Shown here: positions 7,530-22,181 of the stretch, piece after piece
Layout of the letters: each line of letters opens with the position of its first letter
How positions within the stretch are numbered: the stretch's first letter is position 1
Virus genome (UHGV): UHGV-1601690
Reading direction: 5' to 3' (one strand)
Length of the DNA: 24,689 nt
From: a virus
Notes under the pieces: generated by a model
What the model was told of the DNA's origin: nothing
What the model saw: only the letters and a program-made list of their open reading frames with translations
The model's database searches: none
Translations under genes and position numbers: made by a program

Positions 7530-9260
<1,731 letters not shown>

Positions 9261-10528
9261 ACGGCAAACATTCCCAATTCACAGAGTCCGACCTAAACCA
9301 CATGAAGCGGCTTAGGAATTACAGACTCTCCAAGGGCTAACACTGCCAGCCCGGCAGCTTTTATATTACGGGCCGCGTTAATATCACGATCATGCTCTGC
9401 GCCACATTCCGGGCAGTGCCATTTACGAATATTAAGAGGCATTTTTTGCATGGTGAAGCCGCAACTGCTGCAACGTTTGGAAGAAGGGAAATACTGGTCG
9501 ATAGCGACAATGCTACGTCCACCCCATTCTCCTTTGTACTGGAGTTGGCGTACAAGTTCGCTCCAGCCTGTGTCAGCTATTGCTTTAGACAGCTTCGGGT
9601 TACGGATCATGTTTTTCACTTTAAGGGATTCAACGCAAACAACTTGGTTTTCGTTAATCAGTTTGCGGGACAACTTATGCAGGTTATCCATCCGACAATC
9701 GACTATTCTCGCGTGGAGGCGGGCAACCTTTAAACGTGCTTTGGCGCGGTTCTTTGAGCCTTTTTGTTTCTTGCTCAATCTGCGCTGTAACACTGCTAAT
9801 CGCTTCGCGTATTTAGCGTTGTGTCGAGGATTGCCAGTTTTAAAACCGGTATCGGTGACGAACAAATCTTTTAAACCAATATCAATGCCGACCGTGGAAA
9901 CGGTGATCGGCAGTGATACAGGCTCAAACTCGCAGAGACAGGATACAAAATATCGTCCGGCAGCATCCCTGGTGATAGTGACAGTGGATGGAGCAGACGG
10001 CAACGGACGGCTCCAGCGAACATCTAACGGCTCTTTGCCATGTACAGCTTGCCGTCACGGTATTTAAATGCGCTGGCAGTTAGTTCTGCGGCCTGTTTAT
10101 GCCGCTTGCTCTTAAAAACTGGGTATGCAGCACGCCCGGCGAAAAAGTTAGCAAAAGCCGTTTGTTGGTGGCGCAGAGACTGCTGGAGGGGGACGCAGGA
10201 AACGTCATTCAGCCAGGCGAATTCTGGTTCTTTTTTCAGTGCCGTTAATTTGGCGCTGGCTTGTGCATAGCCGACCCTCTCATGGCGTGCGTAGTACGCA
10301 TCGGTGCGCCAGCGAAGGAGGCTGTTATAGACAAAACGCACACACCCAAAAGTCCGGGCTAATAGCTCGGTTTGTTCGGGAGTTGGATAGAATCGATATT
10401 TATAGGCACGCTTCATGTTCTATATAATACATTGAAACTAATGAGTATATAAATGAATACACGGACGAAAATGTTATCAAAGCCAATATACCAACAGACA
10501 TTAGGTAAGGTAGCTGGAGGGCAATATA
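9261..10528 (-). mobile_element. tnpB-only IS200/IS605-family insertion between prt and pro (ends not determined; coordinates are the surrounding intergenic limits)
   Basis: No Y1 tnpA-sized ORF on either side. Only 32 nt separate the convergent prt and tnpB stops, so the right end must abut or overlap the prt 3' end. Confidence 0.5.
9293..10416 (-). pseudogene. tnpB: tnpB (IS200/IS605-family OrfB, RNA-guided nuclease family), split by a frameshift
   Basis: N-terminal fragment 10024-10416 (MKRAYKYRFYPTPEQTELL...) and C-terminal fragment 9293-10003 (RuvC-like region and CxxC...CxxC zinc finger, KRCSSCG...HCPECG) lie in different frames. The C-terminal frame is open upstream and reads PLDVRWSRPLPSAPSTVT, continuous with the N-terminal fragment if one base is restored near 10027-10033. 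Confidence 0.85.
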
Positions 10529-13188: not shown

Positions 13189-13303
13189 GAAGAGGCAATT
13201 TTATTGCCTCTTCAAAGGTGGCATGAGGGTGCCACCTATATGCGGGCAGTGACATCACTCCCTTCCCGCATATTCTTACCTACCAAAATTAGAATTGGTA
13301 GGT
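13189..13303. repeat. Cluster of four perfect inverted repeats in the porin 3' region
   Basis: GAAGAGGCAAT-TTT-ATTGCCTCTTC (13189-13213); GGTGGCA...TGCCACC (13217-13236); ATATGCGGG...CCCGCATAT (13238-13273); ACCTACCAA...TTGGTAGGT (13278-13303, spanning the porin stop). Confidence 0.6.
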
Positions 13304-14436
13304 CATACCAACAGCAACGATGTTGTCGGTTGCAACCTCAGATGCTTTGGTAAATTCACTTTCATCAATCAGGTTGATCTTGTAGTCAACGAAAGCGGAC
13401 ATATTTTTGTTGAAGTAATAAGTCGCGCCTACGTCGATGTATTCAACTAGATCCTGGTTACCGAACGCACCAATATTTTCACCGCGAGAGTGCAGGTAAG
13501 CGATGGACGGACGCAGGCCGAAATCAAACTGGTATTGAGCAACAGCTTCAAAGTTTTTCGCTTTGTTTGCGATAAAGTCATCACCGAAGACTGTCATATT
13601 CTGAGTTTCAGAATAAGTTGCAGCCAGGTAAATGTTGTTTGCGTCATATTTCAGACCAGTAGCCCATACTTCAGCTGTTTTACCAGAAGCATTCAGAGAG
13701 CTTGCATTAGCATAGGATACCTGTCCATCAGTACGGTCAGATTTTGCATAAGTTGCGCCAATGCCAAATCCTTCATAATCATAAGTAGCTGACAGACCGA
13801 AGCCATCACCATTAGATTCAACTACGTCGCGGCCTTTCCAGTTGTTCACTTTTGCAGCACTATCATTTTTACCCTGATACTGCAAAGCAAAGTTCAGACC
13901 ATCAACCAAGCCGAAGAAATCATTGTTACGATAGGTCGCGACGCCAGTAGCACGCTGGGTCATAAATACATCAGTCTGAGTCCAGGTATCTCCACCAAAC
14001 TCCGGCAGCACGTCAGTCCAAGCGCCAACATCATACGCTACACCGTAGTTGCGACCATAGTCGAGCGAACCATAATCGCCAAAGCGAAGCCCTGCAAACG
14101 CAAGACGAGTTTTGTCTTTATCAGAACCTTCAGTTTCAGTACGGTTACCTTTAAATTCGTACTCCCACTGACCAAAACCGGTTAACTGGTCATTAATCTG
14201 AGTTTCACCTTTGAAACCAAGACGCATGTAGGTCTTGTCGCCATCTTTAAACCCATACGAGCATAAGTTTTATCCCCGTCATCACTAGCTGAAGAAGAGA
14301 AGTAATGCTCTGCATTAACTTTGCCGTACAGATCCAGTTTGTTACCGTCTTTGTTATAGATTTCTGCCGCTTGTGCAGACATTGCCATCAGGACTGATGC
14401 TGCAACCGCAGAAAGTGCCACTGTGATTTTTTTCAT
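13289..14436 (-). pseudogene. OmpC/OmpF/NmpC-family general porin (phage-borne cargo), interrupted by a frameshift
   Basis: Signal peptide plus mature N-terminus ([40 protein letters not shown]...) in ORF 14182-14436; remainder of the barrel to the C-terminal ...VGMTYQF in ORF 13289-14227, in a different frame. Confidence 0.85.
14210..14280. repeat. Diverged 35-nt direct repeat at the porin frameshift
   Basis: Minus-strand copy A gacggggataaaacttatgctcgtatgggtttaaag ([12 protein letters not shown]) is followed directly by copy B gatggcgacaagacctacatgcgtcttggtttcaaa ([12 protein letters not shown]). The copies differ mainly at third codon positions, and the 35-nt offset shifts the frame. Confidence 0.7.
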
Positions 14437-14563: not shown

Positions 14564-15175
14564 AATAATAACCTTGAAAACCCAATGGACTATTAGAAAA
14601 ATCTCAATTCACAGAATAAAAATTGACAAAATAGAACAAAACACAATCAACAATAAGCACAAAAGACAAACAATTAAATTAGCACAAAAATAATAACTGC
14701 AAAAATAGATAGCCTGTTAATTAATAGGGTTTTAATGGATGTGGATTTGAAATCTACTTAAAAAGTAGAGTCAAATTAATTACTGTCGATTGGGTATTAA
14801 ACTGAATCTATATTGTGAGAGTTAAAGACGATGTGTTTTAGTTATACATGTTATTCCCTAAAATGGAGTAGTCTCATCGAATTCTGATTAATAACGAGCT
14901 AAGCCAATTCATTTTAGTATGTGTATATCTTTACCCTCTGAATATGCAATGACGAAGAGATATTAAACAATATGTAGCTTCAGGATTGACTCTGGAAGAA
15001 TTAAAAGATCGGCTAAAGTGTTCAATATGTGGTGAGCGAAACGCAAAAATTAAAATTTTTTGATCTAACATATTAGGCAATAGCTTGCTTCCATAACCTA
15101 AAGCAAGCCACTACGCGTTTACTTTAAGTACACAATTAACATATCAGAACAGATTATTTGTGCACTATCAGGGAG

Positions 15176-15481
15176 TTAATATACGATCTGGTCTACATGA
15201 TCCCCAAAATCATCGTCGTCCTCATCGCCACCCTCTACTGCTGGCCAATCGACAAACCAGCCAGCGTAAAGATGCAGCGTTCGGAGAACATCACTTGCGG
15301 GAGCATCAAGGGTGTTAACGAATCCCATATAGCTATTGGGATTTGCCCCAGCTATGGCTTCAGCGATCATGTCCTCGGTAATGTCACCGGAGATAATGCT
15401 TAAACGCCCGGAAACTTCTTCATTATCATCAAATTCGATAATGGCATCTCCGCCTAATGGCGCTGCGATTTTAATCTGCAT
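15176..15481 (-). CDS. Very acidic 101-aa protein, last gene of the darA operon
   Basis: Start overlaps the ddrB 3' end by 11 nt. About 22 Asp/Glu against 3 Lys/Arg; C-terminus EGGDEDDDDFGDHVDQIVY. Confidence 0.6.
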   Translation of the reverse strand: MQIKIAAPLGGDAIIEFDDNEEVSGRLSIISGDITEDMIAEAIAGANPNSYMGFVNTLDAPASDVLRTLHLYAGWFVDWPAVEGGDEDDDDFGDHVDQIVY

Positions 15482-18458
15482 TATTTAGCTCCTTTGCCAC
15501 ACCTAATAACAGTTCCAGCAATCCGTCACCATTCATCAGTGATGCGGCAGCGGCCTCTTTGTCATGATACAACTGAAGAGCCATAGAGAATACTTCCGTT
15601 GCTGATGTTTTTGAAATAGTCGGTGCTTTCTGCCGAATTTTCCCGGAGTTACTCACTGAGGCTGGCGGGTATACCTTCGCCATATAAATATTACTCAATC
15701 GAGATCTGAAGCACCATTCAGGCTTGCCACGCCCACCGATATTGACGAAAGATGGCTTATCCCCTTCAACATTGGCCTTCAGGAATGATCGGGCTTTCTC
15801 TAACAAACCAGGGTTACTGTACTCAAGATGATGACCCAGCTCGTGCCACAGTGCACTTGCATTTTCATCGTTCAAATTGACAGCAACAACACCATTAAGA
15901 TTTGCATATGCCCTTCCCTGGTGGTGAACCACCTTTGATAAGGTCGAAATTTTACCGCCGGTCAGGCGATAAATATCAGCAAGTTCCTTGCGCAGGTCTA
16001 TCCCACCATTCTGTCCAGCGCGGGCTTCTTCCACTTCTTCCGTGATAAAAGAGTCGGCCCACTCAAGAGCTTTTTCTTCAGATACGGATGAGTTTGCGAT
16101 CGCACTGTTCATGGCAGATAACACTTTCTCGTGGACCGAACCCATACTTCGCTGATTCATTTGCCAGCGTGTCTGCGGGTTATATGAGAATCGCTTAAGT
16201 AGTTGGTCAAGCTGCTCAAGTTCTTCTTCACTGACATACCTTTTAGCCTCACCAATAATGCCAGGGAGAATATTGCCGTTAGGATTAAACGCTCGCGAAA
16301 GGAAGAGTTTCAGCGCCCCCATGCCCTCCGATGCTTCAATATCACCAATAACCCGGTTAACAATGGCCGCACTCTTCGGATTAGCATCCGCCAACGCTCT
16401 GGCTACAATTTGCAGGGACGATACGACCTCACGCTGCATATCCGTCCTGATCTCATCAATAAACTCTGGCGTTATGCCGTGCTCTTTAAGGATATCCCTG
16501 CCTTCCGCCGTTACCCCATCGATATCACCGACATGTTTATTAACCCGACTTTGCAATGCCTTAAATGCCTTCAGAATTCCACGGGCATCATCCGCTTTAC
16601 TAACGGCCTTCCTGAATGCTGGCAAGAAGTCTGAGTTAACCTCATTTTGTTGATCGGCCCACTGAATGGAGGCTTCTTTCATCTCGTCCAGAGTCAGATC
16701 ACCCAACGCAGTATGGTCTGTGAATATGAGCGACAACCTCTGAACCATTTCTGCCAATGGTGATGCCGAATGCGCCGCGCTAAGGAATGCTTTCACCCTG
16801 GTTGGGCGAATGGAAAACCAGTCAATAGCTGGTGGCATATCTCCGTTTTTTATCGCCTGCGCTATCTCGTCAAAGCCATCGCGCCCAAGGGAGGATGCGT
16901 GATTTAACAAGCCGCGAAGTAACGAATTGCTGATACCGAATAATCGGCACCATTTTTTCACGTCGGCAACAGGCATTCGAACAAAATGCGCAAGCACTTG
17001 TACAAGCTGTTCATCTTGGGGATCTGTACGGGAAAGCAGCCTGATCAGATGAATAATGTCTTTGATGCCGGATGCCCGATGTAATAGCAAACTGGTATAT
17101 GGAGCAACACCGTTGTAACTACCGCCGGAAACGGACTCGAAAAGACCGCCGGATATCCCTTGCATGCCTTCGTTTTCCAGTTCCTGAGACACCTGGCGAA
17201 GGATATCCTGTAACGACACATCACCACCGCCAAACATATCCCCCAGCGCCTGGCCCTGGTGCTGTAACTCATCATTGATACGTTGAGCCATCAATTTAAA
17301 AGCGGTGGCCATACGCTTCGCGCTACGGTTATTCGCGACGATGAACAACGCGAGAGCTTTCACTTCCGGGGCTGTTTCGCTGAACATATCCCCCTGAGCA
17401 ATAACATCGGTAATATGTTGGCCTGACTCCTTCGATTGCCTTACCAGGTCTACCGCATCTTTCAATGCCGCCAGCGCCTTTTTATCGAGGCTATCCGCTG
17501 TCTCAATGCCATCAACAATAGTTGTCACAGCCTGCTTGTGCGCTTCTCCTGATAAAGCCTGCATCTGGACAAAATCATTGGCTGCCGCATTAAGCGCCGT
17601 CAGAACATTACGCATATCCGGATCAGCTTCTTCTGCAACCATCCTTACCAGGCGCGCATCCTTATATGCCTTGGCAAAGATCGCGTTTTGTATACGGTCT
17701 ACAAGTTGCCGTGTTGGTCGCCCATCTTCCGTTACAAGGCCAGCAGCCTGTGTGGCACCAACTTGCGTCATGAATCCGCGAATAAACGCGTCATTACTGC
17801 GGCTAAGCAGATCTCCGCTTTCTGATGGGTTAAACAGCGCCATCATCGCCGGAGTTATGCTGTCAGCATCAACAAAAGCCTTTTCACTGGCTGCCATTTC
17901 CTGAAGATCAGAAATATTTGAGTCCTTGGCAAACTGAACGCGGTCAACCTTAGTTAACCGGCGGCGCACCAGTACCGGAGCCGCCATTGATTCAACCTTT
18001 TCAGGTCGTATGCCGAATTCGGTCGCATGATCAATCAGGTACTCACGATACCGATCCGCATTGCCGTCCTGATAGGCTTTGATGATCCCCATGGTCCGTC
18101 CATTACCTGACTCAACGGCATTGTCCTCACCAATTATCGGCGCGCCATGGCTGGATAAACCGGAATCGGTAAGCTGGGCAGGACGCAAATCCTTGGATAT
18201 CTGGTTGACCTGAAGAAGACTGGATGCGCGGGTCCGGTCGCGCGGCTGAAGTTCCTGGGGATAGTCAGGGTTAATTTTCCCGTCCAGAGTATTGGATACC
18301 AAAAGAGCTGAGGCATCGACGATATCAAACGCTGTTTTTACCTCGTCTCCCTTCGCTGTCACCACATACGAAACCCGCCCGTAATTGGGCAGGTTTTTTA
18401 GCAGCTCGATCAGCGTTTCTATGCTGGTGGCCATTACCACCTGATCGCTTAAGCTCAT
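15471..18458 (-). CDS. ddrB: DdrB-like large Dar accessory protein
   Basis: 995-aa ORF downstream of ddrA in the darA operon; size and position match remembered P1 DdrB. Contains an HELGHH (HExxH) motif at 15828-15845. Confidence 0.75.
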   Translation of the reverse strand: MSLSDQVVMATSIETLIELLKNLPNYGRVSYVVTAKGDEVKTAFDIVDASALLVSNTLDGKINPDYPQELQPRDRTRASSLLQVNQISKDLRPAQLTDSGLSSHGAPIIGEDNAVESGNGRTMGIIKAYQDGNADRYREYLIDHATEFGIRPEKVESMAAPVLVRRRLTKVDRVQFAKDSNISDLQEMAASEKAFVDADSITPAMMALFNPSESGDLLSRSNDAFIRGFMTQVGATQAAGLVTEDGRPTRQLVDRIQNAIFAKAYKDARLVRMVAEEADPDMRNVLTALNAAANDFVQMQALSGEAHKQAVTTIVDGIETADSLDKKALAALKDAVDLVRQSKESGQHITDVIAQGDMFSETAPEVKALALFIVANNRSAKRMATAFKLMAQRINDELQHQGQALGDMFGGGDVSLQDILRQVSQELENEGMQGISGGLFESVSGGSYNGVAPYTSLLLHRASGIKDIIHLIRLLSRTDPQDEQLVQVLAHFVRMPVADVKKWCRLFGISNSLLRGLLNHASSLGRDGFDEIAQAIKNGDMPPAIDWFSIRPTRVKAFLSAAHSASPLAEMVQRLSLIFTDHTALGDLTLDEMKEASIQWADQQNEVNSDFLPAFRKAVSKADDARGILKAFKALQSRVNKHVGDIDGVTAEGRDILKEHGITPEFIDEIRTDMQREVVSSLQIVARALADANPKSAAIVNRVIGDIEASEGMGALKLFLSRAFNPNGNILPGIIGEAKRYVSEEELEQLDQLLKRFSYNPQTRWQMNQRSMGSVHEKVLSAMNSAIANSSVSEEKALEWADSFITEEVEEARAGQNGGIDLRKELADIYRLTGGKISTLSKVVHHQGRAYANLNGVVAVNLNDENASALWHELGHHLEYSNPGLLEKARSFLKANVEGDKPSFVNIGGRGKPEWCFRSRLSNIYMAKVYPPASVSNSGKIRQKAPTISKTSATEVFSMALQLYHDKEAAAASLMNGDGLLELLLGVAKELNNAD

Positions 18459-18470
18459 CCCTGTTACGCC

Positions 18471-18836
18471 TTATTCTGCCTCTTTAATGTTGGCGGCTAT
18501 CCATGCCGCCGTGTGCTGTTTAACCTGGTCCAGGTCGATGTATGTGCCAACATATTGACTCAAGTCCTGTAACGTACCGATAAATGCATCAGTGCTCTGA
18601 TCGACGAATTTATCAGCCAGGAAATCAGCAACCAGTTTTGGCACACCATCATGTACCGAAGGTTGTTTTTCCTCGCCACTACCGCTGCCGGACGCGCCGT
18701 ACCCCATCTGTTGCATGATCTGGTCAATTTCATCGCTGATATCCAGCAACTCCATGCCACTCGCGGTCGCCGCTTTGGACATCAGAGCATCCAACTTATC
18801 GCTGAGATCCATTAACTCAATAGCTGATAGTGTCAT
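18471..18836 (-). CDS. ddrA: DdrA-like small acidic Dar accessory protein
   Basis: 121-aa ORF; start overlaps the darA stop by 4 nt. Assignment by operon position. Confidence 0.7.
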   Translation of the reverse strand: MTLSAIELMDLSDKLDALMSKAATASGMELLDISDEIDQIMQQMGYGASGSGSGEEKQPSVHDGVPKLVADFLADKFVDQSTDAFIGTLQDLSQYVGTYIDLDQVKQHTAAWIAANIKEAE

Positions 18837-20753: not shown

Positions 20754-21365
20754 TTAATTTCCTGCTTTCAGTTGCTTAAGACGACGTTTGAGTTCGCCAT
20801 TCCGTGCCTTTTCGTTATTGAGTCGGCCCGTCTCCTTATCCAGCTTCGCCCGCAAATCAGTGATCTGCTGTTGATTGAAAGACACCGAATTCTGCGCGGA
20901 CTTATAAGCGGCAACCACCTGAGCATTCCGCTGTTTTGCTTCTTGCAGGCGCTGAAAGTTGGATTTAACTGCCGGTTTCTTGTCTACCGGATTGGCAACA
21001 CGCTTCGCTTTGGCGATCAGTGATTTCTGGAATTTTGCGGAGTTTTTGCGGGCCGCCTGTCCCATGGCGGTACCAAGCGTCTTGATATCCGGCGACTGAG
21101 CGTTAGGAATAGCTTTTCCATTCAGTTTCACAGACGATATATCGCCAGTATCGTTTACCTGTATGGCAAGAATTTGTCCGTCGTTAAGAACCAGCTTTGC
21201 GGTTTTAACTTTAACGCCATCTTTCGTTGTTGCGCGGTTGCTGGAGTCAACCTCAATTACCGTAACCCCGGTTTTATTGATCGCCGCGATAAGGGATTTC
21301 AGCCCCTTTTCATTAACCTGGTCAAAATCGACCGTTGCATACTTATTTTTCGTCATCTGACACAT
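20754..21365 (-). CDS. hdf: Hdf-like protein (homologue of a DarA fragment)
   Basis: 203-aa ORF with local similarity to DarA (NSAKFQ region) and a coiled-coil-like C-terminus. The second ATG at 21356, preceded by AGGA, is the more likely start. Confidence 0.7.
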   Translation of the reverse strand: MCQMTKNKYATVDFDQVNEKGLKSLIAAINKTGVTVIEVDSSNRATTKDGVKVKTAKLVLNDGQILAIQVNDTGDISSVKLNGKAIPNAQSPDIKTLGTAMGQAARKNSAKFQKSLIAKAKRVANPVDKKPAVKSNFQRLQEAKQRNAQVVAAYKSAQNSVSFNQQQITDLRAKLDKETGRLNNEKARNGELKRRLKQLKAGN

Positions 21366-22112: not shown

Positions 22113-22181
22113 AAGTTCCCTCCTACGTTGTCAGGAGGTAATGGTATGCAAAGTAACTTCTCAACCGGTCATGTTGCTTGA

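Follow-up and report, generated by a model that had tools for sequence, protein, structure and literature searches.

The stretch of DNA analysed here, hereafter the window, comprises 24,689 nt of the viral genome UHGV-1601690, and its minus strand carries at 15176-15481 an ATG-to-TAA reading frame of 101 codons. This interval is 100% identical to odaA of P7 (AF503408), and 95% identical at the nucleotide level to hxr of P1, the name used below. With the P7 record as a whole the window shares only 98.8% identity over 7.3 kb, which marks it as a P7-like relative and not as that record itself. The encoded protein is 97% identical to P1 Hxr (YP_006490.1), its P7 counterpart being OdaA (AAQ07496.1), and gives a full-length match to PHROG 2292 (E 1.1e-58), with residues 1-101 aligned to profile positions 1-105. 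The features of the locus are collected in Table 1.

Table 1. Features of the hxr locus, with their positions in the window and the basis of each assignment
Feature	Position	Strand	Basis or remark
hxr/odaA coding sequence, 101 aa + stop	15176..15481	-	ORF list, P7/P1 identity, PHROG 2292, composition, pN/pS
Overlap of ddrB 3' end and hxr start, 11 nt	15471..15481	-	ddrB stop TAA at 15471-15473
Shine-Dalgarno sequence AAGGAG, 7 nt upstream of the hxr ATG, within ddrB	15489..15494	-	read from sequence
Late promoter LPdar, -22 box AAGTTACTT, -10 box TACCAT	22141..22159	-	base-for-base identical to annotated P1 LPdar
Two stable hairpins 3' of the hxr stop, operon end	15077..15166	-	RNA fold -34.5 kcal/mol, z -4.3
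Hxr core, residues 1-80, net charge -10	15242..15481	-	predicted; AF2 block with pLDDT 68-88
Hxr tail, residues 81-101, 9 acidic/0 basic, tip I-V-Y	15179..15241	-	predicted; pLDDT < 50 at 83-101
D-E-D-D-D-D tract (GAT/GAC/GAG codons)	15209..15226	-	sequence; variants in 75 IMG/VR loci
ddrB, long form, 995 aa	15471..18458	-	Pfam ddrB-ParB, E 8.5e-40 at aa 36-167
H-E-L-G-H, DdrB aa 872-876, predicted zincin metallopeptidase motif	15831..15845	-	conserved motif
DdrB aa 901-950, candidate Hxr docking surface	15609..15758	-	charge profile, +9

A preliminary description of the locus had given the product as roughly 22 acidic against 3 basic residues, and the count agrees exactly (15 Asp and 7 Glu; 1 Lys and 2 Arg). 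The computed net charge is about -19 at pH 7 and the pI at most 4.05, and Hxr is the most acidic product among the 37 reading frames of at least 80 aa in the window. Its acidic residues fall into three patches within the first 80 residues and a tail, AVEGGDEDDDDFGDHVDQIVY. The same description spoke of a C-terminus formed by an Asp run; the run itself is present, but since it occupies residues 86-91, the very C-terminus is hydrophobic (..VDQIVY) and not acidic.

The reading frame is a real gene and more than a chance occurrence. Among 81 close relatives the 80 codons of the core are found in 22 DNA haplotypes that encode only 10 protein variants, and the resulting pN/pS of 0.15 points to purifying selection on this part of the protein. 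Frameshifted or truncated hxr alleles occur sporadically in public E. coli assemblies (proteins P0005, P0006, P0008 and P0009). For several, the point of divergence is the Asp-codon repeat, its vicinity or the region of residues 60-67. Sequencing errors may account for these alleles, or they may be genuine pseudogenes. In the P7 record odaA is annotated as "unknown protein function", and in the P1 record hxr is annotated as "possible repressor; homolog of Xre". The earlier remark that this is not a characterised P1 protein is thus right in substance, although the gene had already received an annotation in both phages. A literature search on Hxr returned nothing beyond annotation and non-essentiality. 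The common annotation of the gene appears to be wrong.

Translational coupling to ddrB and a position at the distal end of the operon, both proposed at the outset, are borne out by the sequence. The hxr ATG (15479-15481) lies inside ddrB and starts 8 nt ahead of the ddrB TAA, and the overlap is accompanied by a Shine-Dalgarno sequence. This stop/start arrangement is kept in 100 of 100 related loci, with an overlap of 11 nt in 93 of them, 14 nt in three, 17 nt in one and 1 nt in three. A programmed frameshift that would fuse DdrB to Hxr was considered and dropped, because a TAA in the hxr frame stands two codons before the ATG and no fused version occurs in the 100 loci. The late promoter LPdar drives the series lydA-lydB-hdf-darA-ddrA-ddrB-hxr (in P7, hdf is named odaE, ddrA odaC and ddrB prt). 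At the other end, the P1 record AJ000741 carries an annotated terminator 30-103 nt past ORFVIII, which is the place of the two hairpins found here. A simple terminator scan called none 3' of hxr in the window; in diverged relatives a canonical GC-rich hairpin directly follows the hxr stop, with a T run in three of them (L004, L006 and L009). Taken together, LPdar upstream and the hairpins and terminator downstream identify hxr as the last gene of the late operon.

Beyond the hxr stop the relatives part company. In RCS47, SJ46 and other P1-like phages the nucleotide homology to the window ends exactly at this stop codon (15176-15178), and what lies 3' of hxr differs from one genome to the next: the gene is followed by isaB and IS1 in P1, by a porin gene in P7 and immediately by ssb in L006. 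The 3' end of hxr thus marks the border of a variable or cargo region. In the window, the nmpC/ompD-type porin gene (13289-14436, minus strand) is broken into pieces in different frames, an N-terminal one of 84 aa (14182-14436) and one of 312 aa (13289-14227), where AF503408 has a single NmpC precursor of 371 aa; the alignment of this region to P7 breaks at 14218-14242. Furthermore, about 1.27 kb (9246-10516), between the portal (prt/proA) and head-processing (pro/proB) genes, has no counterpart in the P1 and P7 reference records. This insertion carries a split TnpB of the IS200/IS605 type, consisting of an HTH_OrfB_IS605 part (130 aa) and an OrfB_IS605 plus Cas12f1-like TNB part (236 aa), and it is found at 99.3% identity in many E. 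coli P1-like plasmids.

The structure of Hxr was predicted with AF2. A first model, built on 5 near-identical sequences, was too poor (pLDDT 61) and was replaced by one based on 9 sequences, with a mean pLDDT of 74. According to this model, Hxr is predicted to consist of a compact core of 80 residues, arranged as beta-beta-beta-alpha-(two short bridges)-alpha-beta, followed by a disordered acidic tail of about 20 residues with a hydrophobic tip. The core is nearly invariant among close relatives, and nearly all the variation of Hxr among near-identical phages sits in the tail; in particular, the number of Asp residues in the run behind the G-G-D-E motif varies, mostly between 4 and 8, across 75 IMG/VR loci. 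A structural search with the model returned no relative and no significant neighbour. Sequence searches gave 0 families at E <= 10 in Pfam, 0 at E <= 10 in NCBIfam, and no match at E <= 10 among PDB chain sequences. The modelled fold is consequently one without detectable relatives.

These results bear directly on the P1 GenBank label, according to which Hxr would be an Xre-type repressor. In favour of the label there is only the P1 annotation note, which gives an identity of 28% to a phage Xre across some 58 residues. Neither HTH_3 nor any other Pfam or NCBIfam family matches at E <= 10. The model predicts three N-terminal strands, two helices and a final strand in place of a five-helix bundle; as these two helices are the only ones and lie 17 residues apart, no helix-turn-helix is formed. 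No HTH proteins occur among the structural neighbours of Hxr, none of which is significant. Moreover, DNA binding is irreconcilable with a net charge of about -19, the protein presents no electropositive surface, and the gene, coupled to ddrB, is part of a late operon of structural genes. The repressor label is thus effectively refuted, and we give it a negligible probability. The P7 label of unknown function is accurate and the P1 Xre/repressor label unsupported.

An exhaustive HMMER search of 1.84 billion representatives yielded only 18 matches to Hxr. They include about seven homologues of 96-100 aa (31-45% identity) and one tandem duplication. Three matches of this search, P0021, P0024 and P0026 (HMMER E 4e-7 to 7e-4, with 4-9 stretches each), are long tandem-repeat surface-type proteins that lack the W..WP and tail features of Hxr, and they were treated as summed weak matches. 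A wider profile search added only a few homologues, which carry no Pfam domains and many of which lie on contigs of about 80-100 kb. Wherever the context could be read, the homologues are confined to P1-like contigs, and the family therefore appears to be restricted to P1-like phage-plasmids. Homologues with 31-47% identity to Hxr are still encoded right after the ddrB(-ParB) gene, with overlapping stop and start, and are followed by a terminator. In one P7-like metagenomic phage (L009, 8205-8759; P0015), Hxr is tandemly duplicated into a protein of 184 aa with two cores and one acidic tail, and the duplicated gene still overlaps the ddrB stop.

Acidity is kept across the family down to about 30-40% identity, with 20-23 acidic against 3-6 basic residues. 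The tails measure 21-25 residues, of which 9-11 are acidic and 0 basic, and they end in IVY, FVY, LLY, IIY, IVN, VVN, DVN, EIN or PIH. A tip of two hydrophobic residues and Y or N thus recurs in most of the family, the most divergent members ending otherwise. In other words, the acidity and the architecture of the tail are conserved while its sequence drifts.

The upstream partner in the coupling, DdrB, exists in two forms. Alignment of the long form, present in the window, reveals a conserved N-terminal half, a variable middle and a conserved C-terminal domain with the motif WHExGHH. It has been proposed that DdrB carries a C-terminal zincin peptidase, which may autoprocess the protein before packaging (Iyer et al., PMC5512222). 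The invariance of W-H-E-x-G-H-H in 7 diverged C-domains supports this assignment, and the motif is its sole basis here, as searches of the C-domain against PDB profiles and Pfam gave no meaningful match. Just past the HExxH motif lies the only strongly basic 50-aa stretch of DdrB (aa 901-950), and several basic residues recur at this position in the diverged C-domains. The short form, of about 445-462 aa, ends where the conserved N-terminal part ends and lacks the HExxH domain. It is found in many P1-like phage-plasmids (Enterobacter, Pantoea, Erwinia and others) and in IMG/VR contigs (L097-L100 and L105-L166, for example L097 3965-5347). No trace of the C-terminal half was seen downstream in the short-DdrB loci examined in detail; in L097 the next gene is a lysozyme gene.

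The presence of hxr follows the form of DdrB. The comparison covered 148 related loci with enough downstream sequence, 99 with long and 49 with short DdrB. The Hxr HMM scores in 96 of the 99 long-DdrB loci and in 0 of 50 short-DdrB loci. The three HMM-negative long loci carry, in the same overlapping position, reading frames of 100-118 aa with 15-23 acidic against 2-6 basic residues, two of which keep the "..FEWP..EIN" features; similarly divergent versions of Hxr occur in Serratia and Rosenbergiella loci. A model-free test, in which any reading frame of 70-200 aa with a net charge <= -8 and a start between -40 and +300 nt from the ddrB stop was accepted, found such an acidic frame in 99/99 long and 0/49 short DdrB loci, counts that overstate the number of independent events since many of the 148 loci are near-duplicates. 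A simple NJ tree built on the DdrB N-domain shows the two forms interleaved, which implies at least 9 switches between them.

The two proteins also diverge together. Pairwise identity of Hxr correlates with that of the DdrB C-domain (r 0.99; partial correlation 0.94 when the N-domain is controlled for), whereas the partial correlation with the N-domain is -0.20 when the C-domain is controlled for. Two loci (L006 and L090) illustrate the pattern: relative to the window they retain 92% identity in the N-part of DdrB and only 47-48% in its C-part and 44-47% in Hxr. Judging from these comparisons, the variable middle of DdrB, the HExxH domain and Hxr form a cassette that appears to be gained, lost and exchanged as a unit, while the ParB-like N-terminal effector that carries it is conserved.

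The small gene is thus located downstream of ddrB, co-translated with it, and co-varies with the C-terminal module independently of the N-part, though the two are physically linked. A conserved N-part, an exchangeable C-part and a co-varying small gene downstream are the signature of an effector with its immunity protein or chaperone, and on this ground we propose that Hxr may be the cognate partner, of immunity or chaperone type, of the C-terminal module of DdrB. The proposal is tentative, and we hold it at somewhat below even chance. Colicin and pyocin immunity proteins, polymorphic toxin cassettes and type III chaperones share such an arrangement; the likeness is one of logic and not of homology. 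Given the adjacency of the two sequences, their joint gain and loss and correlated divergence could also come from linkage and cassette recombination rather than from interaction.

A different place for Hxr would be the phage head. It would then be a seventh Dar or internal head protein, packaged, co-injected and missed by proteomics, and could serve as an acidic spacer or counter-charge beside the basic Hdf or the DNA, or aid the ejection of DdrB or DarB. Encoded between LPdar and the terminator, hxr does belong to the late darA operon, as expected of the Dar class, together with six packaged proteins. Among these, DdrA is likewise small and acidic (121 aa, net -14) and Hdf strongly basic. 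The LC-MS/MS table of P1 virion proteins contains DdrB, DdrA, DarA, Hdf, Ulx and DarB and does not list Hxr, but its authors note that small low-copy proteins are missed (PMC9024508). Hxr has only three tryptic sites (K4, R26 and R67) and yields very few tryptic peptides, of which one is of convenient size (residues 5-26), so that its absence from the proteome is weak evidence. Recent reviews and structural work also count six Dar proteins. The distribution of the gene speaks against packaging as well: all short-DdrB phages that retain hdf, darA and ddrA do so without hxr, which indicates that Hxr is not generally required for Dar or head assembly. On balance, we consider it unlikely that Hxr is a packaged head protein.

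A role of Hxr as chaperone of the basic Hdf, suggested by the opposite charges of the two proteins (-19 and +21), was set aside: short-DdrB phages keep hdf without hxr, which makes a dedicated Hdf-Hxr pairing unlikely. No protein of the operon other than Hdf/odaE (20754-21365, minus strand; 203 aa, pI 10.2) is strongly basic.

It had initially been suggested that Hxr is a DNA mimic, whose negative surface or tail would block type I restriction-modification or some other defence protein that binds DNA, much as Ocr and ArdA do. The extreme and conserved negative charge and the location in an anti-restriction operon agree with this suggestion. DNA mimics are, moreover, notoriously undetectable by sequence, and a tail that is acidic and disordered could stand in for single-stranded nucleic acid, as do the tails of SSB and T7 gp2.5. 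None of the lines of evidence followed here lends it support. Hxr resembles no solved DNA mimic in sequence or fold: for Ocr, there is no Pfam or PDB sequence match and no elongated, all-helical fold resembling bent B-DNA is predicted, and for ArdA there is no domain in Pfam, no PDB sequence match and no structural match. Structure prediction, named at the outset as a check for a DNA-like distribution of charge, shows a compact beta/alpha core and a floppy tail in place of a rigid, DNA-shaped array of carboxylates. The gene stands behind a late promoter, and late expression would be of anti-restriction use only if Hxr were packaged; the protein has not been detected in virions, where the scarcity of its tryptic peptides makes it hard to see. 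Dar protection is described as acting in cis only (PMC12707154), whereas a decoy would act in trans, and hxr is missing whenever the C-terminal half of DdrB is absent. A mimic role is thus quite improbable. The argument from acidity applies at least equally to DdrA (18471-18836, minus strand), which has 21 acidic against 7 basic residues, a pI of 4.1 and no Pfam domain, and which, unlike Hxr, is detected in P1 virions.

The other guess made at the outset, that of a capsid-packaging chaperone, fits the comparative data much better than mimicry, owing to the strict tie to the C-terminal half of DdrB, and it comes close to the partner role proposed above, in which the escort would be one possible activity. 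In this role, Hxr would be made late in infection, in step with DdrB, by virtue of translational coupling. Its acidic core and flexible acidic tail would bind the C-terminal half of DdrB, for which the +9 segment beside HExxH is a candidate docking site. Binding would keep the C-terminal module inert or assembly-competent in the producing cell, and Hxr would thereby control the maturation of DdrB or its loading into proheads, while itself remaining mostly outside the virion. The logic would be that of the immunity protein or chaperone of a polymorphic or injected effector, and neither that of a repressor nor that of an Ocr-type decoy. CRISPRi knock-down of hxr causes no plating defect (PMC10695390); any harm that Hxr may restrain is consequently not lethal to phage growth under laboratory conditions.

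The wider interpretation, that the C-terminal half of DdrB and Hxr constitute a swappable effector with its cognate immunity protein or chaperone within a phage head-protein operon, is more doubtful, and we regard it as rather unlikely. If it were true, proteins injected by a myovirus together with its DNA would show an arrangement in the style of polymorphic toxins, and Hxr would be without precedent as a dedicated inhibitor or escort of a capsid-packaged polyvalent protein, on a fold without known relatives. Dar is the textbook example of proteins that enter the phage head and are injected along with the DNA to counter restriction, and P1 is under development as a vehicle for the delivery of protein and DNA. 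A partner role for Hxr would explain the existence of long and short forms of DdrB, would point to the C-terminal half of DdrB as an effector in its own right that is rapidly exchanged, and would offer a handle for engineering the cargo of the P1 head. Should Hxr have no such role, the finding shrinks to the corrected annotation of an accessory gene; many records of P1-like phages and plasmids have taken over the "putative repressor Hxr" label, which is apparently wrong.

Hxr shares features with several known systems. Like Ocr (T7 gp0.3) and ArdA, it is a small and strongly acidic product of a mobile element that faces type I restriction; in contrast to them, its gene is late and not early, its predicted shape is neither elongated nor DNA-like, and the Dar system to which its operon belongs acts in cis. 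The tails of SSB, T7 gp2.5 and T4 gp32 are, like that of Hxr, disordered, rich in Asp and Glu, devoid of basic residues and terminated by a short hydrophobic tip. The SSB-type D-D-D-I-P-F tip is absent from Hxr, which ends in I-V-Y or I-V-N, the terminal aromatic residue not being conserved in the family, and Hxr lacks the OB fold of these proteins.

Class I chaperones of type III secretion systems (T3SS) resemble Hxr in their small size, low pI, mixed alpha/beta core and location beside the gene of the delivered protein, and also in their apparent absence from the delivered cargo. None of them occurs among the listed structural neighbours of Hxr, which is about 30 residues shorter, and a disordered acidic tail is no feature of these chaperones. 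The immunity proteins of colicins, pyocins and polymorphic toxins are, like Hxr, small and acidic, encoded just downstream of an exchangeable C-part and co-translated with it; in these systems the small gene and the C-part swap and diverge together, as do hxr and the C-part of DdrB. Hxr has no sequence or fold similarity to these families, its binding to DdrB would be the counterpart of theirs to the toxin, and the protein concerned here is an internal protein of a phage head and not a secreted bacteriocin. The functional class proposed for Hxr is therefore a familiar one, and it is the setting that is new, namely that of a partner of a capsid-packaged polyvalent protein.
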